Shown here piece by piece: positions 1 through 51,510 of a stretch of DNA of 64,000 bases. Made by a program: the position numbers and the translations under genes. Every line of letters begins with the position of its first letter. Position 1 is the stretch's first letter. The notes beneath the pieces were generated by a model. That model saw only the letters and a program-made list of their open reading frames with translations, did not search any database and had not been told where the DNA came from. Source of the stretch: Psammoneis japonica (lineage: Eukaryota); assembly GCA_008632985.1 (NCBI GenBank), contig QPGO01000087.1:1-64000 (forward strand), given 5' to 3'.

Positions 1-495
1 TTATCTCCCTCCGACAACGGGAAAGGAGCCGGGGCAGGTCGACGACAATGGCGGCCGCTCCGAAAAACACAAACATAAACGCACAGATTTGTGATTGTCC
101 TTCGTATTATCATGGCATCGATTCCGGCATCCAAAACGCAAGATTGGGACACCCATCATCGTTCGTATCTCATCTGACAGGGAGGACTTGAATCAATGTT
201 TCTATTTGAGACTTATTCGCTTTTGATTCACTTGATGTGGTATTTCTCATAAACCACTGAAGTACGCATGCCGGTACAAGATGCGCAGGATTGAAGTATC
301 TAAACTTTCCAAGCACTGGCGAAATCTTTTTTGCTCCCGTTTCTTCCGTATGTTCACGTCTGGCGCCCAGATAATGCACGTCTGGAGCGGGCGTACCCTC
401 CCCATCCATCCATATCCAGAACGGCCCCATTACATTGAATTCATATCAAGAAAACACACAAAAAAATTCAAACACACTGCAGTAATCAGTCTTTG

Positions 496-3400
496 ATGCC
501 CGTCCGAATCAGCCTTTGTCGCAATGCCGGCGCCAACCGGGGAAAAGTTGTTGCCGCTGTTGTTGTCAAAGATGATTCTTCTGCGTTCCATGATGTTCTC
601 AGAATTGCGAGAAACAAATTAAAGATCCCAAAAAAGAAACCAGTGAATTTGTACGAGCACATTCGTGGAACGCAGATTAACGAGGAAAATTGGGAACAAG
701 TCGTTGTCAATGGAACGATACTAAACGTGGCTTGCGGTGAAGCATTCATTTCACCACAGGGAATTGTTCACACCGAGGACAGCTCGACGGAGCTCTCAGA
801 CGTGCCCACCCCACCGCGGTGGCCGGCTCCTTTTGGGAACAGCGCGCTTGATGTAAAACGCAATGAAGCACCACGAAGGATTCCAAAAAGTCCTCACGCT
901 GTTGTCTACGTCGACCTAGATGGCGTACTGGCTGATTTCGATCGGGGAATCGCTGAATTATGCGGTGGTCGTAGCCCAGAGCAAATGTCTCCCACGGAAA
1001 TGTGGCAAGCTATTGGTGATGCGGAGGACTTCTTTGGATCACTCGCTTGGACCGAGAAAGGCCAAGATCTGTTTGATGCTATACAGAGCATGTTTGGAGA
1101 GGATCATATCGAAATTCTCTCAGCTGGCCAAGGCAAATTCGGTGACCAAAAGAAGAGGTGGTGTCAGAAGCATCTTGGGAGCATCAAGGTAAACATTTGC
1201 ACAAGCATTAGAGAAAAACCGAGGTGGTCGCGAAAAGGTTGCATTTTGATTGATGACAGGCTTGATTTGAAGACGCCATGGGAGAATCGTGGTGGTCGTT
1301 TCGTGCATCATATAAGCCTGAAAGAGACGCTGACTGCGCTTCAACAACTTTCCGATGAGAAGCTACCTGCCGTAGAAACGACAAGTAATAATCTCTGGCC
1401 CTGCAAAAAGGTTGAGTATGTTGCTCTTGACGTTGATCCAGTCGATCACGAGGAGATACTGGGCAATCTTCCCACCGAACTGAAGAAAAGAATCGACAAG
1501 TCTGGACGAGTGGCAAACCTTCACGTGACGCTGGCGCATATGAATCAGGTATCTCAAGAAGAAATGCGCAAAGTATTTGGCGGCCTCGAAGGAGAAAAGG
1601 TCGATGTGGAAGTACGTGGCCTCTTGTGGAGCAAATCTATCGCCGCTCTCGACGTTGCTATTGCGGAAAAGTCCAGAAGATGTAAAGATATTCCTCGATC
1701 TTTGAACCGGTTTGCTCACATGACAATCTGGCATCAAGCTAGCACTAAAGCTTCTGAAGCGAACGACTTGCCACGCCAGGTACAAGGTGGCCATGCGCGC
1801 GAGACACGTTTCGGCAAACCTATTCGTTTGGTTTTAACATTGACGTACATGAGTGACTCCACCCTGCCTACTAGGATGAATCGTCGACGATCGCCGTTCG
1901 CTGATTTGAGTGGCGACGTTCTAAATCATTTCAAGCGTCTCAGTCGTACTAACCGATATATTCAACTTCGAAGATATGACGAGCACATTTCCGTCGACTA
2001 CACTGACCTGGCTGCATTTCAAACGGGAGACGTTTCTGATGTCAGACTGAAAGAATGCCGAGGACTGTTGGTTTCTCCGATTGACGGAACTGTTCTCGCC
2101 CGTAGATTCCACAAATTCTACAACGTGCACGAGGTACTCGAGTCTGATCATGGAACCGGCATTGACGTGAGAGGTTGTTTGCTTCTGGAAAAGCTTGATG
2201 GATTTCTGGTTTCTCCTTTTGTGTCTCCGGTATCCGGCAGGGTTAGGTGGGCGACGCGACAGGAAATTAGTCCCGCTGCCGAAACCTTTGTCGCACGAAC
2301 GCCAAGTTGTGATTTTGCATCCTTTTCCAAGTATTGGATGGACAAGCGGTTCACTCCACTGTTCGAATGCATCAACCGAAGTCAGCAGAAAGGAGTTGTT
2401 ACGTATGATCGCGACCGAATGGTTCTTATTGCCATCCGCCACATGGACACCGGATTGTATGTTGACTGGGAAGAAGCGGCGGCGTCAGCTAAACAATTCA
2501 ATTTACCAACTGCACGGACAATCAGTCTTCCAGTTGGACAGGCACAAACGCTTGAAGGAATTCTAGCCTTCGTGCGCAATAACTTGTCTATCAAAGAAGA
2601 AATAGAAGGAGTTGTTATGGTTTTGGCTGATGGTCAAAGTCGCTACAAGATCAAGACAAACTGGTACCTGAACAATGTGAAACTGCATCTGAAGAAACCA
2701 TCACGACTCAAAGAGAGCAGCACTGTAGAACCTCCGTTGCTTACTTGGGGCGGCCTGCAGTGTTCTCATTGGACTGAGATACCAAATCAACTGCTCTGGG
2801 AGCTGGCTCTTTGGAAATGGCTCTGCGACGAATCAATCAATGATGACTTGTTGCCCGACTATGTACATCGCCTGAATCTTGCCACAAATTGCCCCATTGA
2901 CATTCTGCTTTACTTTATTGAAACCACTCGAGTCGCAGTCGTTCAACTGGATCAAGACTTGGCTTATTGGGCGTCGAATGAAATCGTCCAAAGAAACCAA
3001 GGGCTCGCTTTGCGTCAAGCACTATCGGCGGGATGGGAGACGGGCCTCGTTCAATCCTACTTGACAATGTCTAAGGATTCCACCAATGGATTACGACCGC
3101 TTGTGTCATTTCTGTGGAGCAAAATAATCCAGAAATCGGAATGGGGTGCCCTTCAGCGACTTCTGTCCATTGATTTTGTTCGACTGTCGGATCTATCGAC
3201 TGACGTGGGTCTTTTGTTCCAGACCGTCTTTGATAACAAGAACGCGAACAAGGATCAAACAACCATTATCCTTCGTGGATTACCAGGTTCAGGGAAATCG
3301 CACTTTGCACGCCAAGTTCTAGCGCCGTACCTAGCTCCGAGCTCGGTCGAAATTGTTTCAGCGGACGACTTTTTTGTAACCCATCGAGGGTACGAATTTG

Positions 3401-3681
3401 ACGAGTCGAGGCTTGGAGCTGCTCACGCTGATTGTCGCGAGCGTTTTATGACATCGACTGCAAGCATCCGAATCGTTGACAACACCAATTCTACACTGCA
3501 GGAGTACGCATTTTACAAGCGAAAATCGCAACAACCAGTGCTGGTGTTTGAGATTCACAGGAAACCTTCGATCAACACCAATGATCACAATGTCCCGCAA
3601 GTCGTCATCAACCGAATGAAGCGTCGGTGGGAGAATGATTCGGACGCTATTCATGTGCAGAACTTTCACCGCTGCTACTAA
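496..3681 (+). CDS. Multidomain RNA end-healing/sealing enzyme: N-terminal ubiquitin/DCX-like domain, HAD 5'(3')-nucleotidase-like, 2H phosphoesterase, T4 Rnl1-type RNA ligase, P-loop polynucleotide kinase (AAA_33-like)
   Basis: Intronless 1061-aa ORF from ATG 496. HAD motifs VYVDLDGVLADF and ILIDDR. Two HxT motifs (HVTL, HMTI). Rnl1 motifs ECRGL, RRFHKFYN, EKLDG, EGVV, YKIK. Kinase motifs LRGLPGSGKS, SADDFF, VDNTN, HNVP. Confidence 0.85.
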   Translation: MPVRISLCRNAGANRGKVVAAVVVKDDSSAFHDVLRIARNKLKIPKKKPVNLYEHIRGTQINEENWEQVVVNGTILNVACGEAFISPQGIVHTEDSSTELSDVPTPPRWPAPFGNSALDVKRNEAPRRIPKSPHAVVYVDLDGVLADFDRGIAELCGGRSPEQMSPTEMWQAIGDAEDFFGSLAWTEKGQDLFDAIQSMFGEDHIEILSAGQGKFGDQKKRWCQKHLGSIKVNICTSIREKPRWSRKGCILIDDRLDLKTPWENRGGRFVHHISLKETLTALQQLSDEKLPAVETTSNNLWPCKKVEYVALDVDPVDHEEILGNLPTELKKRIDKSGRVANLHVTLAHMNQVSQEEMRKVFGGLEGEKVDVEVRGLLWSKSIAALDVAIAEKSRRCKDIPRSLNRFAHMTIWHQASTKASEANDLPRQVQGGHARETRFGKPIRLVLTLTYMSDSTLPTRMNRRRSPFADLSGDVLNHFKRLSRTNRYIQLRRYDEHISVDYTDLAAFQTGDVSDVRLKECRGLLVSPIDGTVLARRFHKFYNVHEVLESDHGTGIDVRGCLLLEKLDGFLVSPFVSPVSGRVRWATRQEISPAAETFVARTPSCDFASFSKYWMDKRFTPLFECINRSQQKGVVTYDRDRMVLIAIRHMDTGLYVDWEEAAASAKQFNLPTARTISLPVGQAQTLEGILAFVRNNLSIKEEIEGVVMVLADGQSRYKIKTNWYLNNVKLHLKKPSRLKESSTVEPPLLTWGGLQCSHWTEIPNQLLWELALWKWLCDESINDDLLPDYVHRLNLATNCPIDILLYFIETTRVAVVQLDQDLAYWASNEIVQRNQGLALRQALSAGWETGLVQSYLTMSKDSTNGLRPLVSFLWSKIIQKSEWGALQRLLSIDFVRLSDLSTDVGLLFQTVFDNKNANKDQTTIILRGLPGSGKSHFARQVLAPYLAPSSVEIVSADDFFVTHRGYEFDESRLGAAHADCRERFMTSTASIRIVDNTNSTLQEYAFYKRKSQQPVLVFEIHRKPSINTNDHNVPQVVINRMKRRWENDSDAIHVQNFHRCY

Positions 3682-5014
3682 TCTATTTTAGCGATGCCGA
3701 TGCTGCTCTTACAGTCCTCTTGTAAATGGGGATGGAAGCGGGTGGCTGTGGATGGACGTCCATGAATCAAAAATGTTTGTACAAGCGGTTCTGCCAGCAA
3801 GCTGCATTTTACTTTTGCATGACACAAAATTTAATCAACTAGAGCAGGAAAACGGTCCAGGCCAAAATGATTTCGCTCTGAAAGTGTTGGACATCCAGCA
3901 ACTGGCCCACTGTCATTGTTTGCAAGCTTGTTGTTGCTTCTCCTTCTGATGTCAAGGCCTGCTTGCTCAAGACCCCAAAGATCTCTATCCCTGACCTTTC
4001 TGTTGTTCTGCACAATGGTGGCAGCACACTTCAGAATGATGGATCATTGGTTGAAGTTGCTTTGGATGGTGTTTTTGTTGTCATTTGTTCATGTTCCATC
4101 CAATGACATGGCTGCATTTCATTGCTCTGCAGTTTGCAAGGACAAGTGCCCAAGGTTTGATGAGTCAACCAACCCAGCTTGCACACAACCCAGCTGTTGC
4201 TTCACTGTGTTGCAGCAATTCTTGCACCAGGCATGTGTCCTCTGTGCTTGTCCTCCACAAGAAAATGTGCACACTGCAGCAAGAATCACACTCCATTGTT
4301 CTTGGCAGCTGGGTTTGTGAAAAGTTGTCTCTGCAAGTTTTTCATTTGGCTGAGGAGGTTTTGGTGTGCATGGGCATGCCCGTCATTGCCACATGTTTGC
4401 TTGTGTCTTGCCATTCAGCGCACTCATGATTTTGCAAAAAAAAAAAAGAGTTGGGCTCCTTCTCTCTCGCCTGAAACAGTGTGTGGCTTGCTCCCAGCAT
4501 GCATGCAAGCCAGCTACTCAAGAGCAAGGAGTGGGCATTTTGAGCAGCCTTTTTGCATGCTGCACTGAGCGGGTCATCATTGAAGAAGAGCTTGCTCCAG
4601 GAAAATCCCATGTGGCAAAGAAGCTGATGCTTGTGATGTGCATGGCACCAAACTTACCTGACAAGCTCAGAAAATGTGCAAGCATGCATTTTGTTGTTTT
4701 CACTTGTCTTGAAGACACAAAATTTCTCAAGTGTCACACACTCACCCCAAGTGCAGCTGGCCTGCGATGCCACTTGGTTTGCCAAACACCAGGTTGGCCT
4801 GAGCAGTGGCAGTGGGTGCTTGCACCACCTGCTGGACAGCAGCTCTGCATTTGACCCATGGAACAATCTGAGCTCAACAGATTTTCTCAATTGCCTGCTT
4901 TTGACATTGTGCACCTGTCATGTGCCACAGCTGCCGTGCCAGCAGACCATTGTTGCCACATTGCTGCTGCTTGTTTTTGGCAGATGGCAGCTCTGCACAT
5001 GGCAGCACCAGTGG

Positions 5015-5015
<1 letters not shown>

Positions 5016-5047
<32 letters not shown>
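5016..5047. repeat. (CT)n microsatellite
   Basis: Run of CT units. Confidence 0.9.
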
Positions 5048-5049
<2 letters not shown>

Positions 5050-5479
5050 CTCCTTCACTTCTTGACTTGATGATGTGCAGCTTTGCTGCTGGAGTTGACT
5101 CGCCCATTTGGCCAGCATGGGAAAAAATGTCTGTGTGGGCCAAGAACATGTGGTGTGAGGTTGTGCTGGTTTGGAAAGTGCTCTCTGCAGAAGTTGGTGT
5201 CACTCTCTTTGGTTGATGGTTGTTTCTTGCTCATTGTCAATGGGGGAGAGGGGGCAAGCCACACCACTGCAGAAGCTCAGTGGTGGAGCCAGCTTCACAC
5301 AAACATCCACCAGCGTGCTTGTCCTGTAAATGCAAGCTGTTGATTGCAGCTCCAGGAGAGGGCAGCAAAGATGACCAAGCTTGGACAGAGCTGAAGAATG
5401 CTGCCAAGATGCAAGCACCAGGAGCCACCCCTGGGGGGGAAGTGCACAATCAAAAGTGGAGCATTCTTTCTGTTGTTTT

Positions 5480-5503
5480 GAAGAAGAAGAAGAAGAAGAA
5501 GAA
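5480..5503. repeat. (GAA)n microsatellite
   Basis: About 8 GAA units. Confidence 0.85.
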
Positions 5504-7199: not shown

Positions 7200-8095
7200 G
7201 GTGCCCTTCTAGACTACAACAGTGGCGAATAAGACTTGTATATACTCTGCCCTTACAACCTGAATGACATGCCAAACCGAGATCAACATGAGATAATCGA
7301 AAGCAGCACATACGGTAGCAACATGGAACAGGCAACAACGCGAAACCTGACTTTCTTTGTTTGGGCGGGAAGACATCCGTTTCGCCGCCAACGGTTTGAT
7401 CGTGTAAGCTCACGAAGGTTGGATAAATCCTAAATTTTTCGCAAGATTGGTAATTGGATCAAATTGGATCTATTTGGATCTTATGCAGCAACTGAAAACG
7501 GATATGTCTAACTAAGAACTCTAAGAGTATTTATACCTTTTTACTGCATACAAGACGGAATAAAATATTCTGTACCCAATTTGCCGTGAAGAATCATCGA
7601 CTATACTGTAATAAGAATACACAGCATAACTTATATTCAATGATTTTATTCGCATACAAAGAAAAAGAATAGAGGGAACATTCCGTTTCAGTCGTACTGT
7701 AGATAGCCTCAGCGGGGGTTTTGGCGCTTTTTTCCCGGCGTGTCTCCCGCCAAGAAAGAAGGAACAATGCTTCAAACGCCCGAGCCATGCTCAATTAGAC
7801 TCTGCGTTGTGGCTTGCGGAGCGAGAATGCCAACAGCCCCCTTCAGTGTGATGGTGGCTGCAAAGCTTCGGCCTCTGAGCTCTGAACGAGCCAGCCGCCC
7901 CATCTCAGACTTTCACAGACTGGGCTGTTGACTGGGTGGCAGATCGCCAGACAGGCGCTCCGTGGCTCTCTCCCTCTCCCTTGCAGATTTCACAACCAAC
8001 CACAAATTTTTTGCAAACAAGAAAGTGCTCTCGCACACAGCCGGCACAAGGCACACAAAAGAGGGTTTTTGGTGGCAACAACACTCCTGTGCTTT

Positions 8096-8371
8096 TGACA
8101 GAAATTGAAGGCAAATGGCAAGAATTCAAACAACAACTCCTTGCTGCTGTCTAAACAGCAGATGAGTCTCCGCTCAGAGACCGTCACAGGAGCCGAAAGA
8201 CGTGTAAGTCGGTGTGATCGGGCCACTGTTGTCATTCTTGTGAGCCTTGTGGCTTGAAAGCAAACTGCATCGTGCGCGAACGCGTGGAACTGAAGCACAC
8301 AAAACTGTGCGCGGCAAACTGAACAGTGCGCGACATTTCGCGCGCACCCAAATCCTGTTCAAATCCTGTCA
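8096..8371 (-). repeat. 3' LTR of the 3.3-kb element
   Basis: Direct repeat of 11101-11376 with TG...CA ends. Confidence 0.92.
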
Positions 8372-8437
8372 CTCCCCAGTTTGCTTGAGGAGCCACAGAA
8401 ACAGATTCGACTTCGGATTGACTAAAGAACTTTGGAG

Positions 8438-10144
8438 TCAAAGCACCAAAACATGAGGAGACAAGAAAGGATCAAGATCCGAGAGCAACGTTGCATTCTC
8501 CAAGTGGGTCATCTTGAGATGAGCTGCGTCTCCCCAATTGCAGATGCCGTTGTGCTTTTCAAAGCTCAAGGCACACTTGGGATCTTGTGGGATTCCACAT
8601 CCGCGCTTGCAATGGAAGGAGCAAAACTTGGTCTGGTTGACAATGTTGAACGGTGGGGCAACATTGCAGGCGGCATGGCGTTTGCACGACTCGGGGAACA
8701 GAGCAAGCATCAGTTCAAAGGCACAAGCGGTGGTCTTGTGTTCCACCAATCCGACTGCATCTCCTGAGAGACTGATCCAATTGGAGAAACGAGTCTCAAG
8801 GTGCAAGCCTTTGGGGATCGGATTGGAGCAAGACATCTTGTGGTGCAAGGCTGCAGATGTCTGATTGGGGCAACCAGTCCCGTGCTGCAAGACTTCTGGG
8901 ATCCAAAAGGACTTGCCAGTGTTGTGACACGAGTCTTCGGGGATCCAATCAGGAGGCCAAGTCTTGAGGTGCAAGACTTGGGGGATCCAATCAGGAGGCC
9001 GAGTCTCGTGGCGCAAGACTTGAGGGATCCAATCCGGAGGCCGAGTCTTGAGGCATGAGACGTGGAGGATCCAATTGGGAGGCCCGGTCTCGAGGTACGA
9101 GACTTGGGGCATCCAATCAGGAGGCCCAGTCTCGAGGTACGAGACTTGGGGCATCCAATCAGGAGGCCTGGTCTCGAGGTACGAGACTTGAGGCATCCAA
9201 TCAGGAGGCCTGGTCTCGAGGTACGAGACTTGAGGCATCCAATCAGGAGGCCCAGTCTCGAGGCACGAGACTTGAGGCATCCAATCAGGAGGCCTGGTCT
9301 CATGGTGCAATGCTTGGAGGATCCGAAGACAACAAAGCTGCTTGGATGTCCTGAACTCCCCATCCAATGAACCGGTTGAACTGTTGTGAACAGATTCAAT
9401 GACGGGAAAAGGAGGCTCCCCATCAGGAGACACGAGAAGCAAGTTGTCACCTCCATCACTTCCCAAACGAAGACTGTGAAGGGTGACAGCGACAGAAGTC
9501 GACACGTGGAGGTTGGCAGCACGTGGTTTGTGGGGTGCAAAGACTGCAGCTTTGGAAGCCATGGGTGGAGTGTCCCAACTGGTCTCGAAGTGCGGGCCTG
9601 TGCAAGGGCTGCAATCCTGCACTGGGCCGAGGTTGCTTGCAGGCGGGTTGGTCAAGACATGCGGGGTGCGACTGACACCACTTCTAGGAGACACCTGAGT
9701 GGCGGCACAGTGCAAGGCTGGTGTCAAAATGGCACTGGGTTCATCTGGTTTGGATGGCAAGGGACTCAGCACAGGTGCGGAGGGTGCTGCGCCAGTGGCT
9801 AGAGAGGTCAAGCAGTCCGGACCAAGGCAGCAGTTGCGAAATTCCTCGGGTGTGAGCAACTGGGGTTCATTGATCACATCATCACCGTTGCAAACTTTGA
9901 CAAAGTGGAAGCTGATCAAAGCTGCTAGGAGGTTTCTGTGGGTCCGTGGCAAAGGCACTGCATTGGCGCCGTCTCTGTAAGTGAGGGCGTCAATTTGGGT
10001 GGGTGAGAACGTGAACTGTTCCTCGCACGATTCAATCCCGTTGATGGACAGGGCAGAACGAAGAGGGCTGTCATCGTCTTGATTGAGCACAGTGCCTAGA
10101 ATGCATTTGAAGCTTTCGGTTTGTTGCTGTCGCGTGAGAACCAT
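8438..10144 (-). pseudogene. Chimeric Copia ORF: Gag N-terminus + 14-aa tandem repeats + pre-RT remnant
   Basis: N-terminus (ILGTVL..DDDSPLRSAL..NGI...IDALTY) resembles diatom Copia Gag starts. C-terminal GCGIPQDPKCALSFEKHNGICNWGDA resembles the pre-RT segment. No integrase, RT or RNase H. Confidence 0.6.
8775..9305. repeat. 42-bp minisatellite, ~12-13 units (ETRPPDWMPQVSYL on the minus strand)
   Basis: Repeating gcatccaatcaggaggcctggtctcgaggtacgagacttgag units that degenerate toward 8775. Confidence 0.92.
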
Positions 10145-11100
10145 GATGGAGGACGGTGCAGTAGAAACAAAAGACAGGAACCAATCTAGAGCGCGGTCTT
10201 GACTCGGAGTTTTGACTTGGAACTTGGCTTGAAAAAGACGTGACTTGAGCCAGACTTGACTTGAAATCTTGGACCATCTTAAAATCAGAAGTCGCCGGGT
10301 TGTGCCACCCCGTTTTGTTGTTGAGTGCTAAACTTCCTGTCCGGTCCGCAGAGTTGTGCCGGCACGTCTGAACCCGCAGCTGGCGGCGCTTTGGGTTGCT
10401 TGCGAGCGGAGTGGCGGGTTGTAAACCCCTGCAGGTGAGCTGACTGGAGGTGGACAAGACCCCCGAACCGTTCTCATTTTGTGTCGGTTGGATTTCCCGA
10501 TCAGGCTGGCCAGTTGACGCAGGCGTTGGGCGCTGTGGACGAACGAACAAATGCGGGAAAGCACCCTCGCCCCAACGCAGGCTGCAATCACGGCCACTTG
10601 CTCTCACAGTCGTCCTCGTGGACCCAGTGGAACTGCAGAGCACCAGCAGTCTGGGGCAGATCAGGTGCAATGGACTCGGTGTGCTTGTAGAGTGGCAGCA
10701 AAACCGCAGTCCGAAGAGTGGGTGCAGGTTCTTGGCCGTGAAGATGTGCACATGTGTGTGTCTTCAGCGACGAAGATCCTTGAATGTGCAGGGTTCTTGA
10801 CCGTTGACCGATGAACAGGTGTGTCAAGGGATGAGGATCAAGGACAGACTTGGATGTGACCGTTGAATGCATGTCTTCAGCGATCAAAGGCAGCACAATC
10901 AATCCAGACATCCAGCGGCAAGGAGACTTGACGGTGACGTTAACTTCCTGCCGATGCCCTGGCATTGAATGCGCGTAGACTTGCCGATGCATGTAGAATG
11001 TGTGCGGAGGTCCACGTGGAATTGAGGTGGCGTCGTTGGTAAATCAACGACGACGATGGCGGTTGCTCAATGGGTTGACAATGAGCAAAGACTGTTAATC

Positions 11101-11376
11101 TGACAGAAATTGAAGGCAAATGGCAAGAATTCAAACAATGACTCCTTGCTGCTGTCTAAACAGCAGATGAGTCTCCGCTCAGAGACCGTCACAGGAGCCG
11201 AAAGACGTGCAAGTCGGTACAATCGGGCTGCTGTTGTCATTCTTGTGAGCCTTGTGGCTCGAAAGCAAACTACATCGCGCGCGAACGTGCGGAACTAAAG
11301 CACACAAAACTGTGCGCGGCAAACCAAACAGCGCACGACATTTCGCGCGCACCTAAATCCTGTTCAAATCCTGTCA
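11101..11376 (-). repeat. 5' LTR of the 3.3-kb element
   Basis: Direct repeat of 8096-8371 with TG...CA ends. Confidence 0.92.
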
Positions 11377-12189
11377 GCTTTGACCAAATCACAGCGTGTG
11401 TGACAAACAAATGACAAAAAATCCAGCTTCCAAATGCTGCAGCACCTTTGCCCAGCAACGCCAGCACAATCTGGCTCTGCTTTTCCACAGCTCACTGGCC
11501 AGCATGGCAGAAGGGAAAAAGTTTGGCAACACAGACAGCTGGCCAGATGACGGCGTGGGTGCCGTGAAGCATGGCACACCTTGAAGGCTGCTGCTCACCC
11601 TCAGCTCTGGGCCTGTTCCAGCTCCAGGTGATCTGCTTTTCATCACATGAGAGGCCAATTTTCTGCGCAGTTTAGCACAATTGACTCCTTCAATTTTGAT
11701 CATTTCGAAAATCGAAAGGTGAGTGTGCACCCGAAAATGCACGCAAAGTGCACACTCGCCCTTCGATTTGGCAAAAAACGGATTTGGAAAAAGTCAATTG
11801 CGCCAAATGCACAAATTGCCAAATGATGGAAATTGAACCCACGCGGAGCACCTGGAGCTGGAACAGGCCTCTGCCACAGCAATCCAACTCTGACTTTTTT
11901 CAGCCAAGCAAGCCCCACGTTCTTCTCAGCCAAGTTTGCAGCATCAGCAGTGCTGCGTGATCTTTTCAGCAGAGGATGCTCTTGGTGCTCCCTTTTGTTG
12001 CTGACAGCAGTTGACTCTGCCTCCATGAGACAATGTCAAGCAGATGATTGTGCCGCTGGCATGCAGCGCTTTGGTTGGGATCTTTCCACAGCTCCTGCCA
12101 GCTCTCCCAAATGACCGAGTGGAGCTTGATTTGTGCCAGCCAGTCAGAGGGTCTTTTTTTGTTCTCAGACTGGTGAGCACAATTGCTGC

Positions 12190-12800
12190 CGAAAAAGACC
12201 TGAGCTGACCAAATGAGCCAATTGGATCACTTTTCAAAAGTCAAAAAATGACCATTGAAAAACTGATGCCAGCCTGTGTCATTCTGGGCATCCCACAAAG
12301 ACTGGAGCCAGCAATCTGTCTCATCCAAACAAACCATCTCCCCCCACTGAACCAAGCTTGCACACAGGGAAGATGACAGAAGCCAAAATGTCAGAGACGA
12401 GGAGGTGTTGAACCCAGTTTGTTGCAACAGCCCTGCAAACCTTGCAAGAACTTCCAGCACAAAGAAGATTCACCAGCCAGGCATGAAAGAATGTGGTCTC
12501 TGTGTTTTGTCAGAGACTCACAAGACAAGCAACAACGGCGGGGCCAGACTGGGTTGCATTGACCTGCAGCCAGCAACCTCATTGGTTGGGAGCAAGTCAC
12601 AAGCCATCTTCACAGTGCTGGCATGATGCAAACCTTCCAGCCCATGACATCCACAATGTCAGGCCACCATCAATTGTTGTGTTCCAACACATGCTTCAGT
12701 GGGGGGGGGGGGGGGGGGGGTTGGTGGCTGCACTGCAGATCTGTTTCTTAAAGTTTGGTGCAATTGCCTCATTGTGTCCAGTGACAAGCAGAACAAACAA
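12190..12800 (-). mobile_element. Non-LTR (LINE-like) retrotransposon C-terminal remnant
   Basis: CLSCESLTKHRDHILSC (CCHC-like) followed by LWDAQNDTGWHQFFNG, resembling the C..C....H...C / Q..IGW....G tail of diatom LINE ORF2. Confidence 0.5.
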
Positions 12801-13361
12801 ATGATGGCACTGCCAACAATCTGCCAGCAGCAGCCTCCTTGGACCTTCAGCTTGTTGCTCTGTTTGGGAAGAGATCTGGAGTCAGGGGCTTGGTGAGAAA
12901 ATTGGCCTGTTCACAAGTGGGCTGGGCGCCCACCTTGTTGACCATGAGGACATGACAAACTTGTTGCCGTGGGGGCATTAGAGCATGCGTTGTGGTGATC
13001 TAGACCTCCTTTCTCGTGGCCATGTTTCTTCCTTGCATTTGAAAATTCTGTGGTTTCAAACCTTGACAGTTGTGTGTGTTGTGATGACATGTCAGCTGTT
13101 GCAGTCAAGCATTTTTGTGCCATGAGGTCTGACCCCCCCAGTCCCATGAGGAAACCATGCTTCACAGTGAAACAGCCACCCATTTTCCCTGTGAGAGTGC
13201 CCACCCTCTGTCCCTGCAAAACCTGCAAATTAAAATCATTTGCATTGCAAATGTTCCATTTTGTTGTTTGCATTTAATTTGGATGATGCTGGCGGAAACA
13301 ACAACACGCCAGTTTGCAGCAGCTGCTGCAGCTCTCTTTCTTGAAGTGCCACTGCTGGCAG

Positions 13362-13825
13362 CCACCTTGTTTGTTGCCAAAAAGTGCAGAGCATGTTGTG
13401 AGAGCACAATGTGGATGAAGCAACACAACCAATGGGAACGGCAAAATGAGCTCACCGGTGCATCCGGCGCCGCTGGTTCTGGAGCAGGTGAGTTTGCAGC
13501 AGGAGCTGCTGTTCCATGATTTGAACTGCTGTTGCTCTTGTCCACCTTGTTCACCGCCACAAAGTGCAGAACATGTTGCGAGAGCATGGCATGGATGAGC
13601 CAACACAACCCACAGGAACGGCAACATGGACTTGCCAGAGCATCTGATGCCACTGATTGGAGCAGGTGAGTTTGCAGCTCAAGTGCTGTTGCTCTAATCC
13701 ACCTTGTTCATTGCCAAAAAGTGCAGAGCACATTGTGAGAGCACAACATGGATGAACCAACATGACCAATGGGAGTGGCAAAATGGGCTTGTCGGTGCAT
13801 CTGGCACCGCTGATTCTGGAGCAAC
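13362..13825. repeat. Three diverged ~160-180-bp tandem units
   Basis: ccaccttgtt...aagtgcaga...ggagca units starting at ~13362, ~13542 and ~13699. Confidence 0.8.
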
Positions 13826-14163
13826 ATGGGCACCAGTGTGCGGTGCATGACATTGAGCACCCAGTTCCACCCCTGTGACTAAAAGAAAACACAGAAAGAA
13901 AGAATGTGAGCAAGCAAAAAACATCTCAAGGGCCACAGAATTTACTTGATGCAATGGCTGTGGGAACAAGCACTGCCTGCATCTGCACCACACTGCACAA
14001 GGCGCCACATGAACAACAAAGTCATGCAGCAATGACCAAGTTTGTCCCGCACCTCCCATGCTGCACATGGTTTGTTGATGACACATTTGGAGCATGGACC
14101 AGAAACAGCAGAGAAACAACTCAGGCAACCTCCATTGGGTCTCCTCCCCACTCTCTGCCTCTG

Positions 14164-14520
14164 CAGTCTTTCTGGATCTGGACAAAAATTGGAGAAGACG
14201 GGTGAAACATCAGCGAACATGTCAAAAACCAATGAACCTCTTTTGTGCACACCTTGTTTGAACAGTGTTGTTTGTGGCACATGCACCATTTCACACGAGT
14301 GATTCTGAGAGCTGTGGGAACAAGCGCCACCTGCAGACCTTCTGGATCTGGACACAGAAATTGGAGAAGACAGATGCATTGTCAGCGAATGCACAAAAAA
14401 ACCCAATGAACCTCTTTTTGCACATGCCTTGTTTGAAGAGTGTCATTTGTGGCAACTTGTGATGATTCTGGATGCAAAACTCTGACTTGTTGTGATTCTG
14501 GATGCAAAACTCTGACACGT
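14164..14520. repeat. ~170-bp duplication plus a ~31-bp duplication
   Basis: tctggatctggaca...aattggagaagac...aatgaacctctttt occurs twice; tgattctggatgcaaaactctgac occurs twice. Confidence 0.75.
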
Positions 14521-15382
14521 GCAATCATGCCAACGCTGCAGAAAAGCTTGTGATGTGCATGCACACAACAACATGCCAGAGCATGGCATTCTGGATGACG
14601 ATGATTCTGGGATGCAGTGGATTCGTGACAGCACACTCGCGTTCACAAAACTCAAGTGACACCCCAATCAAAACCCATCTTGACCAACCAAAGGGGGGGG
14701 CTCACCACAAATTGAGCTGTTGTCATTGGCCAATGGGGCAAAGTCTTTCACAGCCATGGCTGGTTGCTGATTTGCAGATTTGCAGCCACACATGGAATCC
14801 ACATGAAGTCACAACAGCACACGCTCTCATTTTTTTTTATTTTTGGGGAGGGGGTGTGCTGGTGTGAAGTGTGTGGAAAAATGTGCATGTAAAAAAGTGC
14901 TGAAAACACCACAGACCAATGGCTGCACAAATCTGGGAAGCAGCAAAGAGAAATTTAAAATGAGGGTGGGTCATGGGCGTGCGTGAAGCAGACTGCAAGC
15001 ATGCAAAGACACAGGCACATGAGAGTGGGGAGGACAAAGTTAAAACAAGTTCAAATTGATTGCCATTAAAACCAAACCATGCATCACAAAAAATGAATTT
15101 CTGTCCCAGCTAAATTGAAAATTGCGCGCACTTGATTGAAGCTTGTGCAAGAAAAGCCAATGAGACATCAGATGAAAAGCACAAAACAGCTGCATTTTGT
15201 TGAGCACTTTTGCTGGCATTTTTCAAATTCTGCTTGTTGACAATTTTGACAATGCACATTAAAAAATTAACAAAGGAAAGTGGGGAGACCACTGTGTTGC
15301 AGCCTCTGATGGGCAGAGCCAGCACACCACTTGATGAGTGGGTGCATTTGGCACAGCTGGCAGTGCACAGTGTGGCTGGTTG

Positions 15383-15498
15383 CCAGGTGGAGCACACCTG
15401 GGTTGTCTTCAAACATTTGTGCATGAGCAGAGGTCCTGGTTGCCCGGTGGAGCACACCTTGGTTGTCTTCAAACATTTGTGCATGAGCAGAGGTCCTG
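15383..15498. repeat. 60-bp tandem duplication
   Basis: ggtggagcacacct.ggttgtcttcaaacatttgtgcatgagcagaggtcctg twice at 60-bp spacing. Confidence 0.85.
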
Positions 15499-18089
15499 AA
15501 GGAACACACACATCCTGACCAACAAGACTTCTGGAAGCAAGTGTTTTTTTTCAAATGCAAAAGTGCGCAAAGCATGTGAGGAGGCAGGAGGAGCTTGCCA
15601 CTTGGGCAGCTTCAAGGGTTCTTGAGCACAAATGAGCTGACTGAAGATGCAACTTCCATGCCTGATGCCAGCATGAGATTGCACAGAGTTGTCCAAACCC
15701 AATTCCCCCAATCAAAGAGAGCTGCCAAGCCAGCATCAACCTGCCAGCCAAGACCTGACAAGCTCATGGGAAATGAGAACATGATGTCTTGGCTGGTGGC
15801 AAGTTCTCTTGAGGCACATCAAAAACCAGAGTCTTGGCAGCAGCCGCACAGGGTCATTTGGGGCTCAGGTTGAGCCTTGCAATGTGGCTGGTGGCAAGAA
15901 ACAGGTCAGGGCAAGTGTGCTGGTTCACAAACAGCATGACAACATTCTGGCAAAACTCCAACAATCATCTTGCATTGGTCTTCTTTTGAGGTCACTGTGG
16001 CTGCCAAGAGCCTCTTGATTGAGTCATGACCTGGCTGGGGAGCAAATTTGGCTCAGAAATGATCTGCTGGCAAGCAGCAAACTGCCACTTGGCCAGGCAA
16101 TCTTTGCAAAACTGTGCCAACTGAAATTGTGAGCTGTCCAAGGAAAATCTGGCAACTGCCGAGAAAGGCTGTTCTCTCAAACACCTGTGCTGGCAGCAAG
16201 GAGGACAGCCATTTCCACAACAAGCAACCTGGCACTGATGAAGAAAAGCTCCTGGGCACAACTCGCAGTGAGCAAGGTTTAACCAAAGAGTCAACCACAC
16301 TGCATCAACCCAGCCAAGCATTGTCTTGAGTTTGCATGCATGTGCCTGCACTGTTTTTGTTGGTTTTGGCTGGTGTGTGTTTCTTTTCATTGCTTTGCTC
16401 ACTCCCAGCTCATTTGGCTGATGGCCTCTGATGCTCTCAAAAAGTCAATTTGTTGTTTCACTTGCCAGCCAAGCAGCATCATGGTTGGTCTCCTGAGTGA
16501 AAGAGCAGAGGGTGGGGAACCATGTCAATGAGAAAAAGAGTGTTCCTGGTCTGCATTGTGACATCACAAGTTCCCTCTGCAAACTGCTGAACTTGGCACC
16601 CACCATGCTGCATTGCCAGGGCTGAAATTGTCAAACAAGTCACCATTTTGGGGAGGTGTTGTAGAGCAACAATGAAGAAGACACTGACTTGTGCATGGAG
16701 GAATGGCAGCAGTGACCAGTGGATTGCAGCAGCAGCAGGAAGGTTTGGCAGATCCAGCTGCGCCATCATCTGTTGCTGTGGGCCTTGTTGAATGGGTCAA
16801 ATCCAGACATCTGCTGACCCAAACAGAGCCAATTGTCACCCAGTTGGATGCTTGTTCTTTTCTGAGCTGGGTCCCAAAGAACAGAAATGTGACTGTGATT
16901 GCTGCCAGAAAGTCAGTTGGGGCCATTGAGCACAAGGCTCACAACACCTGCAGCACAAACAAAAATTTGGCTGTCACACAGGAGCTCACACAAGAGTGTG
17001 CCCCTGTGCAAGGGGGGCTCTCATCCAAAATGAGGCTCATTGCTCTGCAACAGAAGGTGCCAACAAAGCTGCCAGATGCATTGGTTGATGGCTCTCTTGG
17101 CTGTCAGTGCCAATTTTGATGCAGAAGGCTGAGGGATCAAATCTGCACCAGTCTCTTGCTGGTTTTCCCATGCTCTGTTTTTGTGGTGGCAACTCATTGT
17201 GTAAAAACATTCAAAGAGTTGTCATCCCTTGTTTCAGACAAGCTGAGACATTTCTTCCATTGTCAAACAAAAGAGAGAACAAATTGTGCCATGGAAAACA
17301 GAAACTTTGCTCTTTGTCTGTTCCCTTTTTCTTTGACTGCTTTTGCCTGGAGTGCACCAGCCAGGGTTGGAACAAATGACCAGCATCAGCATCTTTGTGA
17401 CCCCCTCATTTTCACATGCTGATCTTGTGCTTGGGGCCTCATTTCTTCTCCAGCACTGAACCAAACAAGATGGGCCCAGGTGACAAGCCGCCTCAAGCAC
17501 AAACACAACACCCCAAACAAAGTTGGGCAAGTGCCCTCTCCAGTGGTGAGGCCATGATTGCACAGAATTGTCAGGAGCTCAAAACACAAAGAAAGCCTGA
17601 CCTGTGCTGGTGGCAAGCACCACCCCACTGCACAACATTGTTGGTGAGGCACAGCCAGCATGTGACAAAGGAGTGGCCAGAACACCAGGATGATCATGGT
17701 GGCAGCAATGCACAAACAAGCACAGTGGCCAAATGTCAGAGTGTTGCAGCCGTCTTGCCAGCTGGCACACATTTGGCCTCACCAACCCTGAACTCACCGT
17801 GTGGCTTGACTTGCTGCCATGTCAACCAGGTGCAGAAGCTAAAAAGTGAGCATGAGACCTGCAACCCAAACCAAGTTGCAAATGTCTGTTCACCACATTG
17901 TCCACAGTTGTCAGTTTGTCTTTTCACTGCAATTTTGTCGGTCTGTTCCATGAAAACTGCCTCTGACCCAAATGTTCCAATGCAGTCCTTTGCATGGGCC
18001 ATCAATTGACTGCACTTGTGTGCATCAAGCACAGGAGGATGACACTTGGAATCCATGTCACCCATGATCTGCATCATCTGACTCTGCTT

Positions 18090-19100
18090 GCAAACAATGT
18101 TGTCAGGGCAATGCTTTCTCACATGCCCAACCTTGTCAAATTTCTGGCACTTTGTCTGTTGCTTCTCAATCTGCACAAAACTTGCACCCTCAGGTTTCTT
18201 GTTGGCCCTGCAGGTGTCCAACACCTGCAGTGCCTCCTCAGCCAAATTGGGGCAATTTGTCACCCCCCATGTGAGCTGCCGATGCAGGTCTTTCAAGACA
18301 AGCCAATGTTCTCTGGCACCTTCCATTGGCATCACCACTGACAACTTGTTTTCTTTCTCCATTCTGGGCATCATTGGCATCCTTGCTGAGCCCATCTTCT
18401 TTCTTCTTGACAATTCCTTCCTGGATGATCCTGCCACAGGACATTTCTGCCACCTCAGCAAACAATGCTCATGAACCAGGTGCAACAATCTCAAAGCACC
18501 TCTCCTTCATCTTGATGAATGAGTGCAAACTGCTTCCAAGCCTTGCCTGCCTGGGGACATGTGGGCTTGTCTTCTCATTGCATCAAACAAGATCAACTTG
18601 AAAACTTCCGGCAGTGCTGCCATGCCCACTCCTTCACAACTCTTGCAAACTCCATCACTCTTTTGTTCTTGTGACAAAGGCCTTTGCACATTGCCCCACA
18701 ATTGTGATAAATGCCCTCACCTTCTGCCTCTTGTAGACCCCATTCTGTTTTACACAGTGATTGCCTTGCTTGTCCCAGATTGCCTTTTCCTTCTCCAACA
18801 TGGTGCACCCCAACAGATGATGATGCTCTGGCTCTTTTAGCATGCTGTGCTCTCCTGCTGCCTCAGAGAGGCCAGCAGCACCTGCATCTCTTGTCCAAAC
18901 ATTTTTCTGACATGCTTGCCAATCTTCCTCATGGTTTCCGTGTGACCACCTGCCTGCTGCCCCAACTCCGCAATGGCTTCTTGCACCAACTCCTTCTTTC
19001 GTGCTTCTGCACTCAGCTGTGTGTCCTTGCCCACATTTTCTGGGACTTGTGTTGGAGTGTCATGGACTGCCAACAGCCACACACTCAGTCTTGCCAACCC
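18090..19100 (-). mobile_element. Decayed Copia gag remnant
   Basis: TIVGQCAK; LKDLHRQLTWGVTNCPNLAEEALQVLDTC (consensus L..DL...G...YP.T..EA..LL..Y); degenerate zinc knuckle CQKFDKVGHVRKHCP. Confidence 0.65.
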
Positions 19101-19238
19101 TGACACAACCTTGCCACACCCTCTTTCAGCAGACTGTTGGCAGCTTCTTTGACAGCAAGGCCCTTCAGAGACTGCTGTTTCTTTGCCCTCGTCCAGCCAG
19201 CTTGTTTGCCACAATCCACCAACACAAGATGCACCTTT

Positions 19239-19322
19239 GGATTCCTGACAACTTCCCAGCCTGTGTTCCTGGATTCCTGACAACTTCCCAGCCTCTTTTC
19301 CTGGATTCCTGATGATTTTCCA
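19239..19322. repeat. 31-bp tandem repeat, ~3 units
   Basis: ggattcctgacaacttcccagcct repeated. Confidence 0.75.
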
Positions 19323-20261
19323 GACTTTTCCTTTGAACGACATAAAGCGCAGCGACTTTTTGGCTTCTGTGTTGGAGCACCGCTGCTTGCCACGAACCAT
19401 CAGTGCACGTTTAGTTTCACCAACCCCAAACTCACAGTGTGGCTTTCAAACACATTCCTGATGCTGTCAACTGCTGTTTCCATGCCAGCTGGGTGCAGAC
19501 ACTGAAAAGCGAGCACAAGACCCGCCACCCCAAACCGAAGCACAAATTCACCACGTCGTCCACAATCGTCAGCGCATCTTGCACTGCAGCTTTGTCTGTC
19601 TGTCCTCCCATGAAAACTGCCTTTGACTCCAATGTTCCAACACCAAAGCAATCACAGCACTGGCTCTCAAGCAATTGCTTGCCAAGCTGTGTGGCGCAGG
19701 TTGGAGAGTCGAGCTCAACACATTGCTTGTTCTCTCACTCTGGTGAAAGAGCTGAGTTCACATCACTTTTGATTGCATCCACAGCAACAAGCATCACGTC
19801 ATGATGGTGCAAGGCTTTAACAATGTTGGGTCCACGTCTTTGGGCAACAAATGCTGCAAAGCACGCCGCAGACATGGTGTCTCGCCTCTTTTCAGTGAGG
19901 GAAGCCGGGAATGGAGTGGGGGGTGATTAATGATTCTGTTCTGCGGGCTCTTTTTATATAAATCCTCAACGAAGTGTAAAAATTTGTATTCGCCAAATGA
20001 ATTAGTGTCCAAAACTGTCGCATTGATAATGGCTGGTGTTCGTGGACCGTTAGGACGGGACTCGTGTAGTCCGTGGTAGTATTCTACGTAATTTACACCC
20101 CAGTCTTGGATTGGCGACAGCAACGTCTTCACACAATTTGAGTACCGGCTATTTTACCCCACCTTCAACCTGCTTTTCCCATCACAAAGCACAAACAAGA
20201 GAAAACATACCGAATCAGCCAAGATAGCAACATTGTGAACGACTACTACTGTGTAAACAAA

Positions 20262-21552: not shown

Positions 21553-21959
21553 ATGGAGTAGACCTCGGTTCGAACAAGTATAAACAGTGAACAAGCAACA
21601 CCATGATGTGATATAAAGGATAAAGTACACAATGATTATTGCGTTTTGAAGCGTGGAGTGCAGTTGTCTAGCACACAACAACATCCAACGTATCGGCCTT
21701 CAAGATTAAGTCTAATGCTGTTGTATTGTTCTTGGTATTCAGGCGACATCACTGGGCGATTCCATGTTGTCTGCAGCCTCCACATCACATCGGGATTAGC
21801 AGTGTCTTCACTTGCCACCCGTAGTGTTTCCCATTCCGTTTTCAGGTTGGTGGACTCATCTCCATTGCTTCGTACGGGCACTGCAATTTCGATGCGCCAA
21901 ACATTTGAAATAATAGGGCGGTTTGCATTGAAACACCACGTGTGACGTCTGGCACAACG

Positions 21960-23877: not shown

Positions 23878-23912
<35 letters not shown>

Positions 23913-24830
23913 AGAGCACAAATCTTGGCCTGTTGACCTCGCCGCACATGCCTTGCTCAGATTTTGTTCCAAAACTGCAATGCAACATGGGTCCTTGCCA
24001 AAACCCAATGGGTTCAACAACAAATTTTCCAAGAACTCGCCACTCTTGCCCTTTTTTTGACTTGCAACACCTTGTTCGGCATTCTGGCGAGGCACGATGA
24101 TGAAAATGATGGGTTTGTGCAAGATGATCACATGAGAACAAAAAGCCTCTTGCATGAAGTTTGCTGCAATCGTTTGCCATGCACCCTGATGGCTGCCACC
24201 ACCCATGGTGTTCTTTGTCTCATTGGCTTCTTGATCAAAACACACCACACCCCTCCTCTCACACACACAGCTGCNTTCTGGCGAGGTGCAGTGACAAAAA
24301 TGATGGGGTTGTGCAAGATTGATCACATGAGAACAAAAAGCCTCTTGCATGAAGTTCACTGCAATCTTTTGTCATGTGCCTTCATGGCTGCTGCCACCCA
24401 TGGTGTTCTTTGTCTCATTGGCTTCTCGCTCAAAACACACCATTTCCCTTCTCTCGCACACACAGCTGCTGGCTGCTGCCACCTCTGACTTCATTTTGCA
24501 CTTCTTTCCACATGTTTCTCATTGCTCTTGCTCAATGTGCTTTTTAAAATTATGGACCTCAACATTGAAGGCACTTGAGAAGGGAATGGCTGGGTGTTGG
24601 GTGTGCTGCACTCTCTGGGAGAGCAGGAGCTTTGTGAGAAGTGTGCCGGCTTGTGTGTCCTGCCTGTGTCGCAAATCTTCTTGAGAGCTTGAGCTGAGCA
24701 CTGGGCTGAGTTTGAATTGTTTTGTGCTGGGAATGACTTCAGTGGTTAGAGCCCCCCCTCACTTAGGCCCACAAATCCCTTCCTCTGTGGTGGCCCCTGC
24801 TCTCTAGGGCCACTAGCGCCGCCGCTGATG
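21960..24830. repeat. TpA/CpG-depleted degenerate block
   Basis: Almost no TA. Contains a ~155-bp tandem duplication (22436-22750), (CA)n at ~23879-23910 and a ~195-bp duplication (24100-24470). Confidence 0.8.
23879..23910. repeat. (CA)n microsatellite
   Basis: About 16 CA units. Confidence 0.9.
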
Positions 24831-51490: not shown

Positions 51491-51510
51491 CTCCCTCTCG
51501 AACGAAGAAG

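Follow-up and report, generated by a model that had tools for sequence, protein, structure and literature searches.

How do the two long terminal repeats (LTRs) of a single retrotransposon come to differ at 19 places without one transversion and without one insertion or deletion? The question is raised by the element at 8096-11376 in the first 64,000 nucleotides of contig QPGO01000087.1 of the diatom Psammoneis japonica (assembly GCA_008632985.1), read on the forward strand. That 64-kb stretch is here called the window; it was read whole for repeats, open reading frames (ORFs) and composition, and all positions are its own. The answer that we consider probable is that the element is a non-autonomous and still polymorphic LTR insertion in a silenced transposon island, and that its LTRs have independently gained transitions at pyrimidine-purine (YpR) dinucleotides from two superimposed processes. 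The first would be a TpA-specific hypermutation to TpG or CpA, on either strand, accounting for 13 of the 19 mismatches; the second would be ordinary decay of CpG to TpG or CpA, accounting for the other 6. Both would be confined to sharply bounded transposon domains, in whose end state nearly every YpR step would be CA or TG. The pattern of the changes, their polarity, their timing after insertion, their action on both strands and their restriction to domains are documented in what follows.

Sister LTRs that differ only at YpR steps

The two LTRs (LTR1 and LTR2; coordinates of all features are in Table 1) were found with a repeat finder and compared directly. They are 276 bp each, align without a gap and begin and end as LTRs commonly do, with TG..CA termini (TGACAG at the start, CTGTCA at the end). 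They differ at 19 of the 276 positions (6.9%), with 0 indels and 0 transversions. Numbered on LTR1, the mismatches are at 8134, 8135, 8205, 8214, 8215, 8216, 8224, 8225, 8255, 8267, 8273, 8283, 8285, 8292, 8320, 8321, 8327, 8330 and 8349. All 19 fall within YpR dinucleotides, a context that takes up 144 of the 276 LTR bases; the chance of such an outcome is 4e-6, or 6e-5 if the changes are counted as 15 dinucleotide events. At six sites CG in one LTR faces TG or CA in the other (8255, 8273, 8283, 8285, 8327 and 8330), at five TA faces TG or CA (8205, 8214, 8267, 8292 and 8349), and at four CA in one LTR faces TG in the other (8134-5, 8215-6, 8224-5 and 8320-1). The 132 positions outside YpR steps show no change in either copy. 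A preliminary description of this DNA, made by eye, had counted about 19 mismatches with no indels or transversions, all of them TA or CG against TG or CA and several of them CA against TG; the alignment makes those counts exact, and contains every one of the examples that were quoted.

Duplicated sequences outside the TA-poor domains of the window provide a control. In these, transitions and transversions are about equally frequent (~1:1; an inverted repeat of 676 bp at 41341-41968/43002-43645 has 75 of each), and YpR steps hold 67 of 144 transitions (47%), as many as neutrality would lead one to expect. The preliminary description had said that a context-neutral spectrum of mismatches would count against it; 19 of 19 in YpR steps, against 47% in the control duplicates, is what is found. 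Double sites with CA in one copy and TG in the other follow the same division: the duplicates inside domains have 4, 5, 12, 3 and 4 of them, and those outside have 0, 2, 0 and 0.

One pair of neighbouring sites may be singled out. At 8213-8218 LTR1 has TGTGAT and LTR2 has TACAAT; had TA stood at both YpR steps at the time of integration, the element would have entered the chromosome with a TATA-like motif, now broken in both LTRs.

Origin of the differences after insertion

The two LTRs of a retrotransposon are copied from one template and are identical at integration. Contigs of a public sequencing run (run X1) that hold this DNA were placed on the window for depth, joints and variants. One of them joins 8090 to 11377, with 5 ambiguous letters and at a depth of 46, and so represents the empty site with a single GCTTT. 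Because of this contig, the element can be regarded as one clean insertion that is still polymorphic. The unique flanks are at comparable depth (~42-52). Since the identical target-site duplications (TSDs) and the empty-site contig make the LTRs true sisters, their differences arose in chromosomal DNA. TA changes that can be assigned number five A>G and three T>C in LTR1, two A>G and three T>C in LTR2; with the polarity argued below, both LTRs also carry C>T or G>A, and changes of all kinds are interleaved along the repeat. The interleaving of changes of both strands in both LTRs excludes strand-specific editing of RNA or cDNA and also simple conversion tracts. An origin after insertion, in the chromosome and on both strands, is what the preliminary description had proposed, and the TSD, the empty site and the interleaved A>G and T>C changes bear it out.

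Editing of RNA or cDNA during retrotransposition, by an ADAR-like or APOBEC-like enzyme, would have had precedent: deaminase editing of retroelements is well known, and a 5' U or T neighbour is typical of adenosine deaminases, as noted in a 2026 preprint on the alga Bigelowiella natans (10.64898/2026.01.13.699255). Any change made before integration would, however, be common to the two LTRs; in this case the sisters are unlike and carry changes of both strands, on which grounds the preliminary description had also argued against editing. In the Copia-type element of the window, taken up below, Tyr to Cys and Tyr to His changes are likewise in balance (5 and 4). We regard editing before integration as scarcely credible.

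Ectopic gene conversion, by which the differences would have been imported from diverged copies of the family, deserves a closer look, and the abundance of the family gives it substance. Summed over run X1 contigs, the depth is 170,000-290,000 for the LTRs and 4,000-120,000 for most of the interior, against ~50 for the flanks; summed depth is not copy number, but the family is very abundant, and it is polymorphic at the same kind of site. Conversion should have left tracts, and the changes assigned to LTR1 and LTR2 alternate instead. It should also have brought along the family's transversions and indels, which are missing from all 19 differences. Moreover, conversion would only displace the question, for the polymorphism of the family itself consists of transitions at 158 of 169 variable places in run X1 over the whole stretch. 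An ectopic source is in our judgement improbable.

Direction of change

The LTRs alone already carry some information about ancestry. Suppose that every TA decays in either LTR, independently and with p = 0.75, to TG or CA equally and at rates that are equal among sites: the expected numbers of TA/TA, TA/X (X being TG or CA) and CA/TG sites are then 0.9, 5.2 and 3.9; 1, 5 and 4 are observed. If the doubles are assigned to CG instead, there are 16 CG/CG sites, 6 CG/X sites and 4 doubles where 13.2, 11.5 and 1.25 are expected, which is a poor fit; with a CG rate taken from the single changes, 0.28 doubles are predicted (P of four or more = 2e-4). The log-likelihood difference favouring TA ancestry of the doubles is 9.3. 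On this modelling, descent of the four double sites from TA is supported. Each LTR would have had ~14 TA at integration and lost ~75% of them, and ~22 CG and lost ~16% of those; the model gives TA sites 13 of the 19 mismatches and CG sites the other 6. Per site, TpA would be lost ~8 times as fast as CpG, and at a rate more than 100 times that of change elsewhere (a comparative estimate gives ~1.4 changes per TA site per LTR and 0 at the 264 non-YpR site-copies).

Deamination of cytosine alone is the alternative that these figures address most directly. It would cover all 19 transitions with one class of chemistry: the six CG/TG or CG/CA sites would be plain CpG decay, each CA/TG double would be a CpG hit once in each LTR, and TA would be made from CpA or TpG, as in repeat-induced point mutation (RIP), with TA as the end state. 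CpG methylation, which is reported for LTR elements of a diatom (PMC2806351), would supply the substrate. Its prediction of 0.28 doubles compares poorly with the four observed; the remaining tests come from other copies of the family, from composition and from a protein outgroup.

The loose ends of other copies in run X1 read ACTAAAC across 8320-1, that is, TA at a double site at which LTR1 has TG and LTR2 has CA, as cytosine deamination alone would not have it; they read AGCGCGCGAC, with CG at both 8327 and 8330, and GAACGCGC, with CG at both 8283 and 8285. In run X1 depth, A makes up 93% at 8321 and C 99% at 8327. At all six LTR mismatch positions at which it can be read, the family state is TA or CG. 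The interior of the element gives the same direction. Of the 38 interior places listed, 22 are single sites with TG or CA here and TA elsewhere (shares 0.17-0.96), 3 have TG here and CG elsewhere, 1 has CG here and CA elsewhere, 10 make up five adjacent TG/CA double sites and 2 lie outside YpR steps; none of the 38 has TA here and TG or CA elsewhere. At 10625-6 the shares of T (0.61) and G (0.31) imply TA in at least 30% of the depth, TG in ~31% and CA in ~39%; at 10628-9 TA has at least 14%, CA 40% and TG 46%. Mixed shares of this kind are the prediction of independent two-way decay of TA across copies. Eight in-register YpR steps a little further on (10745-10760, Table 1) look like a former (TA)n tract that has been converted stepwise.

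A small-scale replica of the process lies within the element's own ORF. Its tandem array of 42-bp units has four near-identical central units that retain TA and CG (GGTACGAG), with TG or CA at the same places in the outer units; in the 14-residue repeat that is encoded (8790-9366), the four central units have a Tyr codon (in SYLE) where the outer ones have Cys or His. The change from TA to TG or CA is thus visible inside a single array, and the comparison is used qualitatively only, majority rule among units being unreliable (at unit positions 2-3 CA is in the majority and CG is probably ancestral).

Composition of the transposon domains

The same interconversion is written into the composition of the window. 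Observed/expected (o/e) ratios of the YpR dinucleotides shift from genic DNA to young elements to old domains (Table 1), with TA and CG falling and CA and TG rising, while the four YpR ratios together sum to 3.9, 3.7 and 3.9, respectively. In the old domains the other twelve dinucleotides are at 0.79-1.30, little changed from genic DNA, and G+C is unchanged (0.49, against 0.48 in genic DNA; 0.49-0.53 across transposon DNA). The constancy of the YpR sum and the steadiness of the other dinucleotides imply that YpR steps have been converted into one another, with CA and TG, and not TA, as the end state. This is the reverse of what cytosine deamination alone would leave: TA is depleted and not accumulated in every transposon domain (o/e 0.03-0.18 over the domains, with CG at 0.06-0.77 over transposon bins). 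At 12001-19400 TA is at 0.03-0.10 and CG at 0.06-0.26; over all the old domains TA spans 0.03-0.10 and CG 0.06-0.28.

Depleted domains lie at ~3850-5500, 7800-19600, 21950-24550 and 51620-57800, with borders that are sharp to 100-400 bp. Borders of the TA-poor and CG-poor zones agree within ~35-400 bp, and the TA-poor zone tends to extend further. On the left of the domain that hosts the element, for example, TA is frequent as far as 7704, after which a single one, at 7796, is found before the LTR; the flanks have 0 TA in 7797-8095 and 1 in 11377-12400. The element is less depleted of TA and CG than the domain around it, as is expected of a younger insert.

Two other sources of such a composition were considered and rejected: microsatellites or low complexity as the origin of the CA and TG excess, the old domains being complex sequence, and GC-biased gene conversion, G+C and the other dinucleotides being unchanged. 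Among 17 ORFs taken from the old domains, none matched a Pfam family above threshold.

Loss of TA also removes stop codons. TAA and TAG are nearly absent from the depleted domains, and long stop-free frames run on both strands; the 64 kb hold 67 frames of at least 150 codons (among them 8438-10327, 54560-56656, 56560-58140 and 17736-18506). The TA that survives in transposon domains is followed by T in 4 of 99 cases, against 32.5% in genic DNA, and preceded by A in 8 of 99, against 26%. These figures hint that TAT and ATA are lost first, in a comparison that is confounded by the starting composition of the domains. Genic DNA itself has a TA o/e of 0.55 with CG at ~1.0. A TA value of 0.7-0.8 is usual, and the low value here might be weak leakage of the same process.

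Might the whole pattern be an artefact of sequencing or assembly, in which modified bases at palindromic CG and TA steps are miscalled as TG on whichever strand is read, giving TG or CA at random? Both dinucleotides are self-complementary, as sites of symmetric modification are. Yet in the contigs of run X1, an independent run, these TA/TG/CA polymorphisms recur at depths in the thousands, and the contigs match the TA-free unique flanks of the element closely. A loss of ~95% of TA over 11 kb is far above known rates of miscalling, and the host genes of the window are intact long ORFs. The same signature has been obtained from Illumina data in B. natans (10.64898/2026.01.13.699255). We attach very little weight to artefact as an explanation.

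A single N at 24275, at the junction of a 197-bp tandem duplication (24079-24274/24273-24469) inside a depleted domain, may mark a point of assembly uncertainty.

The Copia-type element

A second LTR retrotransposon of the window, of the Copia type, supplies a protein outgroup. Its ORF at 52665-54620 was aligned with 34 relatives that cover at least 90% of it. It has 2 Tyr among 651 residues (0.3%; relatives 2.8%, p = 2.6e-6), and Cys and His are raised (3.4% against 1.6% and 5.1% against 3.2%); Tyr is below 1% in none of 120 related Copia proteins. Twelve columns have Tyr in at least 40% of the relatives; in the window, five of these hold Cys (TGY), four His (CAY), and one each Tyr, Val and Phe. 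Nine of the 12 conserved TAY codons have thus become TGY or CAY, in the balance between Cys and His that is expected if both strands are hit. Arg is kept in 10 of 18 Arg columns and replaced by Cys in 3 and by His, Gln, Ser, Ala and Lys in one each, so that five of the eight changes (Cys, His and Gln) are the outcome of CGN going to TGN or CAN. The diflavin reductase of the host has normal Tyr (3.5%, against 3.1%). With conserved TAY codons turned to TGY or CAY in this way, cytosine deamination alone becomes a very improbable account of the window.

The interior of the Copia element (51621-57799) has TA at an o/e of 0.10 and CG at 0.64. In the corresponding ORF region, 78 related metagenome loci have TA at 0.14-0.81 with a median of ~0.55, against 0.11 here, and three of these loci (L038, L078 and L050) have CG at 0.11-0.18 with normal TA. 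TA-poor codon usage as a trait of the Copia lineage was considered and rejected, the relatives having normal Tyr and TA. The loss of TA is a property of this genome and not of the element's lineage, and it is separable from CpG decay. A few metagenome loci stand apart: L047 has TA at 0.14 over 266-742 (477 bp), and L028, L077 and L074 are likewise low, the few being at 0.3-0.4 with TG raised. Perhaps a milder or a related form of the process exists in the organisms from which they come.

Site patterns, other copies of the family, domain composition and the protein outgroup agree that TA is ancestral and that the direction is not that of RIP, as had been suggested in the preliminary description.

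Rate of change and the age of the element

The flanking contigs of run X1 differ from the window at 3 of 347 bases (1 of 196 and 2 of 151), apart from one 8-bp gap. The LTRs have diverged by 6.9%, against ~0.9% for the flanking haplotypes (a small count), and a clock that takes all sites together would overstate the age of the element at 8096-11376 several-fold. The preliminary description had gone further and held that dating by LTR divergence would badly overestimate element ages in this genome. For this element the claim stands, with 19 differences at YpR steps, 0 at 132 other positions and an insertion that is still polymorphic; it does not extend uniformly to the genome, for the LTRs of the Copia element are nearly spared. 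The bias of LTR dating varies between elements.

Candidate chemistry

What enzyme or lesion would act in this way? Changes that are transitions only, that affect both strands and that require a 5' T fit deamination of adenine. We tentatively favour, by analogy, an enzyme of the TadA/ADAT2 kind, a polynucleotide adenosine deaminase that would be directed at silenced DNA, foreign or repeated, and would turn the adenine of chromosomal 5'-TpA-3' into inosine, which is read as G, while recognizing that it may well prove otherwise. The C>T component at CG would probably be a separate, superimposed process. As LTR elements of a diatom are reported to be CpG-methylated, deamination of 5-methylcytosine would be the simplest route for it.

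The same phenomenon could have other chemistry behind it: biased repair of T:G mismatches to C:G, or a mutagenic modification of TpA such as 5-hydroxymethyluracil or N6-methyladenine. Very-short-patch repair depletes CTAG in Escherichia coli. The shared borders of the TA-poor and CG-poor domains look as if one chromatin or methylation state governed both losses, and the rarity of surviving TA followed by T or preceded by A points to a wider context that any mechanism must explain. We know of no such modification in diatoms, however, and the absence of transversions among 19 changes fits deamination better than it fits errors of excision repair. Chemistry of this other kind appears unlikely.

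Several observations weigh against the reading that we prefer and should be set out together. The site-pattern model assumes equal rates at all sites, and doubles could also be produced by some CpGs that decay very fast. The family comparison draws on 40 listed places of 179 variable ones in run X1, mostly in one 600-bp stretch; the family state is readable at 6 of the 19 LTR mismatch positions (5 dinucleotide sites), and at none of the five TA/X sites. Neither for the assembly nor for run X1 is a sequencing technology recorded, which bears on artefact. No C>T component is reported for B. natans in what is available of the preprint; here the losses of TA and CG are coupled. Then there is the Copia element, in which normal TA persists in the LTRs and the adjoining 130-230 bp, while the 6.2-kb interior has lost most of it. 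The LTR pair (51257-51490/58026-58261) has 17 and 12 TA (o/e 1.05 and 0.76), site patterns of TA/TA 12, TA/X 3, CG/CG 14 and CG/X 1, and 4 YpR transitions beside 2 transversions and 3 indels. The depleted tract ends inside the element and not at its termini. The process is not simply one that takes everything in an inserted element; part of the interior loss may predate insertion, the source copy being already depleted. Island position, copy number and guidance by transcripts are possibilities for the factors of targeting.

Can these observations be drawn together? With some hesitation, we put forward a conjecture: that they reflect an active genome defence of diatoms with a polarity opposite to that of RIP, in which a DNA adenine deaminase guided by chromatin, small RNA or copy number would erase TpA from silenced transposons, and which would share ancestry with the B. 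natans system. TpA would be erased in less time than two haplotypes need for 1% divergence; Tyr codons, TATA-like motifs and TAA and TAG stops would be abolished; and the difference between the LTRs of a thousand-fold repeated family, which are hit, and the LTRs of the Copia element, which are spared, would reflect recognition of the target.

Structure of the element and its surroundings

As read from its sequence, the element appears to be an intact, non-autonomous LTR retrotransposon in minus-strand reading, with the purine-rich tract next to LTR1 as the candidate polypurine tract that would fix this orientation. The 2.7 kb between the LTRs hold one long open frame on the minus strand, in which the ATG at 10144 is the probable start of the internal ORF. 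That ORF encodes 0.8% Tyr, 3.8% Cys and 4.3% His. A Pfam scan found no family in any internal ORF of the element and a protein search found no relatives of this one, and the element is classed as non-autonomous for that reason. No convincing primer-binding site was seen, and the window has no tRNA gene for comparison; it also yielded no Rfam family and no further copy of the LTR. An exact 27-mer from the LTR was absent from the metagenome contigs searched.

Table 1. Features of the window and composition of its parts (o/e, observed/expected ratio)
Feature	Position or extent	Strand	Remarks
Left TSD copy, GCTTT	8091-8095		same 5 bp on both sides; one copy in the empty-site contig
LTR1	8096-8371	minus	276 bp; 3' LTR in minus-strand reading; 2 TA and 18 CG left
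Purine-rich tract AAACTGGGGAG (minus strand)	8372-8382	minus	candidate polypurine tract, directly upstream of 3' LTR; read from sequence
Internal ORF	8438-10144	minus	probable ATG at 10144, stop at 8438; within 629-codon open frame 8438-10327
Tandem array	8929-9301	minus	42-bp units, 8.9 copies, 14-residue repeat encoded; repeat finder and ORF translation
Eight in-register YpR steps	10745-10760		TG TG CA CA TG TG TG TG; other copies TA at 6 of 8 (shares 0.22-0.40)
LTR2	11101-11376	minus	276 bp; 5' LTR in minus-strand reading; 5 TA and 20 CG left
Right TSD copy, GCTTT	11377-11381		matches left copy
TA-/CG-poor domain hosting the element	7800-19600		from composition bins
Copia-type LTR retrotransposon	51257-58261	minus	TSD CTGTG; RVT_2 match; comparison element
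Genic DNA	39.9 kb		o/e TA 0.55, CG 1.02, CA 1.18, TG 1.17
Two young elements	9.5 kb		o/e TA 0.12, CG 0.67, CA 1.53, TG 1.41
Three old domains	~3900-5300, 12000-19400, 22000-24400; 11.2 kb		o/e TA 0.05, CG 0.13, CA 1.82, TG 1.90

The window also has long ORFs with hardly any introns; besides the Copia-type element, they encode a tRNA ligase, a diflavin reductase, a trypsin-like protease, MSS51 and an acylaminoacyl peptidase. The best relatives of the diflavin reductase (47-55% identity) are from the diatoms Cylindrotheca, Thalassiosira, Nitzschia, Chaetoceros, Skeletonema and Cyclotella, and those relatives of the Copia ORF that have names come from diatoms as well. The proteins by themselves would place the source among the diatoms or close to them, with no near neighbour in the protein collection. 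The 1080-codon frame at 439-3681 has a tRNA-ligase phosphodiesterase-like match at residues 366-456, an RNA-ligase domain at residues 539-743 and a kinase-like P-loop match at residues 943-1019; the order in fungal tRNA ligases is ligase-kinase-phosphodiesterase, from which this one differs.

Implications

The findings bear on genome defence, on heterogeneity of mutation rates and on the dating of transposons in algae. If the reading given here is true, TpA hypermutation reaches into another major lineage, takes in another class of invader and can outrun CpG decay; the classification of LTR pairs by dinucleotide then becomes a simple genome-wide assay for it. If the defence conjecture should also hold, TpA hypermutation would be an old and widespread immune mechanism of the SAR (stramenopile-alveolate-rhizarian) clade. 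In such genomes, ages from LTR divergence, Ka/Ks ratios, ORF calls (inflated by false frames poor in stops) and repeat annotation would be biased wherever YpR sites are left unmasked, and gene callers would over-predict ORFs in depleted domains. The search for the enzyme would be narrowed by a context that seems wider than TpA, with TAT and ATA perhaps lost first.

Comparison with known systems

Three familiar kinds of hypermutation share some of these features. Fungal RIP, like the process in this window, makes transitions at one class of YpR step, in both copies and on both strands, in repeated or foreign DNA with sharp borders, and destroys coding capacity. It differs in that it makes TpA out of CpA or TpG, lowers G+C and creates stops; here TpA is destroyed, G+C is 0.49 against 0.48, TAA and TAG vanish and long false ORFs are left behind. 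Raised TpA and lowered G+C in repeats are the marks of RIP; in this window TpA is at an o/e of 0.05-0.16 in transposon DNA, against 0.55 in genic DNA. The decay of methyl-CpG in vertebrates and plants converts CG to TG or CA, as at 6 of the 19 mismatches and in old domains with CG at 0.06-0.26, but leaves TpA untouched, and the metagenome Copia loci show that CG can be lost without loss of TA. APOBEC and ADAR enzymes provide deaminase-type hypermutation of retroelements, and adenosine deaminases prefer a 5' U or T; they act on cDNA or RNA, with strand bias and with identical results in both LTRs, in contrast with sister LTRs that differ on both strands.

The closest parallel is with B. natans. 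A literature search found no report of TpA-specific hypermutation of chromosomal DNA other than that preprint, in which a search of terms met no mention of diatoms, CpG or LTRs (10.64898/2026.01.13.699255). In it, 231 of 302 new point mutations in mutation-accumulation lines fell in two integrated viral regions, at ~1000 times the background rate and in some lines only; A>G or T>C made up 230 of the 231, and every GC-biased one was on TpA. Elsewhere in the B. natans genome, clusters poor in TpA and rich in CpA+TpG were enriched in reverse-transcriptase and transposase domains, and the authors propose deamination of DNA adenine by an ADAT2-like enzyme (10.64898/2026.01.13.699255).

The likeness is detailed. 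In B. natans, as here, TpA alone is hit, going to TpG or CpA by strand with extreme A:T>G:C bias; the action is confined to sharply delimited foreign or transposon-like regions; its long-term result is depletion of TpA with enrichment of CpA+TpG; and the reverse-transcriptase and DDE domains enriched among TpA-poor genes there are akin to the transposon targets here. The differences are also clear. The host here is a diatom (a stramenopile) and there a chlorarachniophyte (a rhizarian). The targets here are LTR retrotransposons and old transposon islands; there they are integrated DNA of giant viruses and virophages. TA is at an o/e of 0.05-0.16 here, against 0.45 in the nucleocytoplasmic large DNA virus (NCLDV) region there; CpG is lost in the same domains here and is not reported to be in the available portion of that work; one element's LTRs are spared here; and the evidence is comparative here (sister LTRs and outgroups) and consists of de novo mutations there. 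We take the window, on the strength of this analogy, to show one kind of process at work in another lineage and on another type of target, superimposed on CpG decay and near completion.

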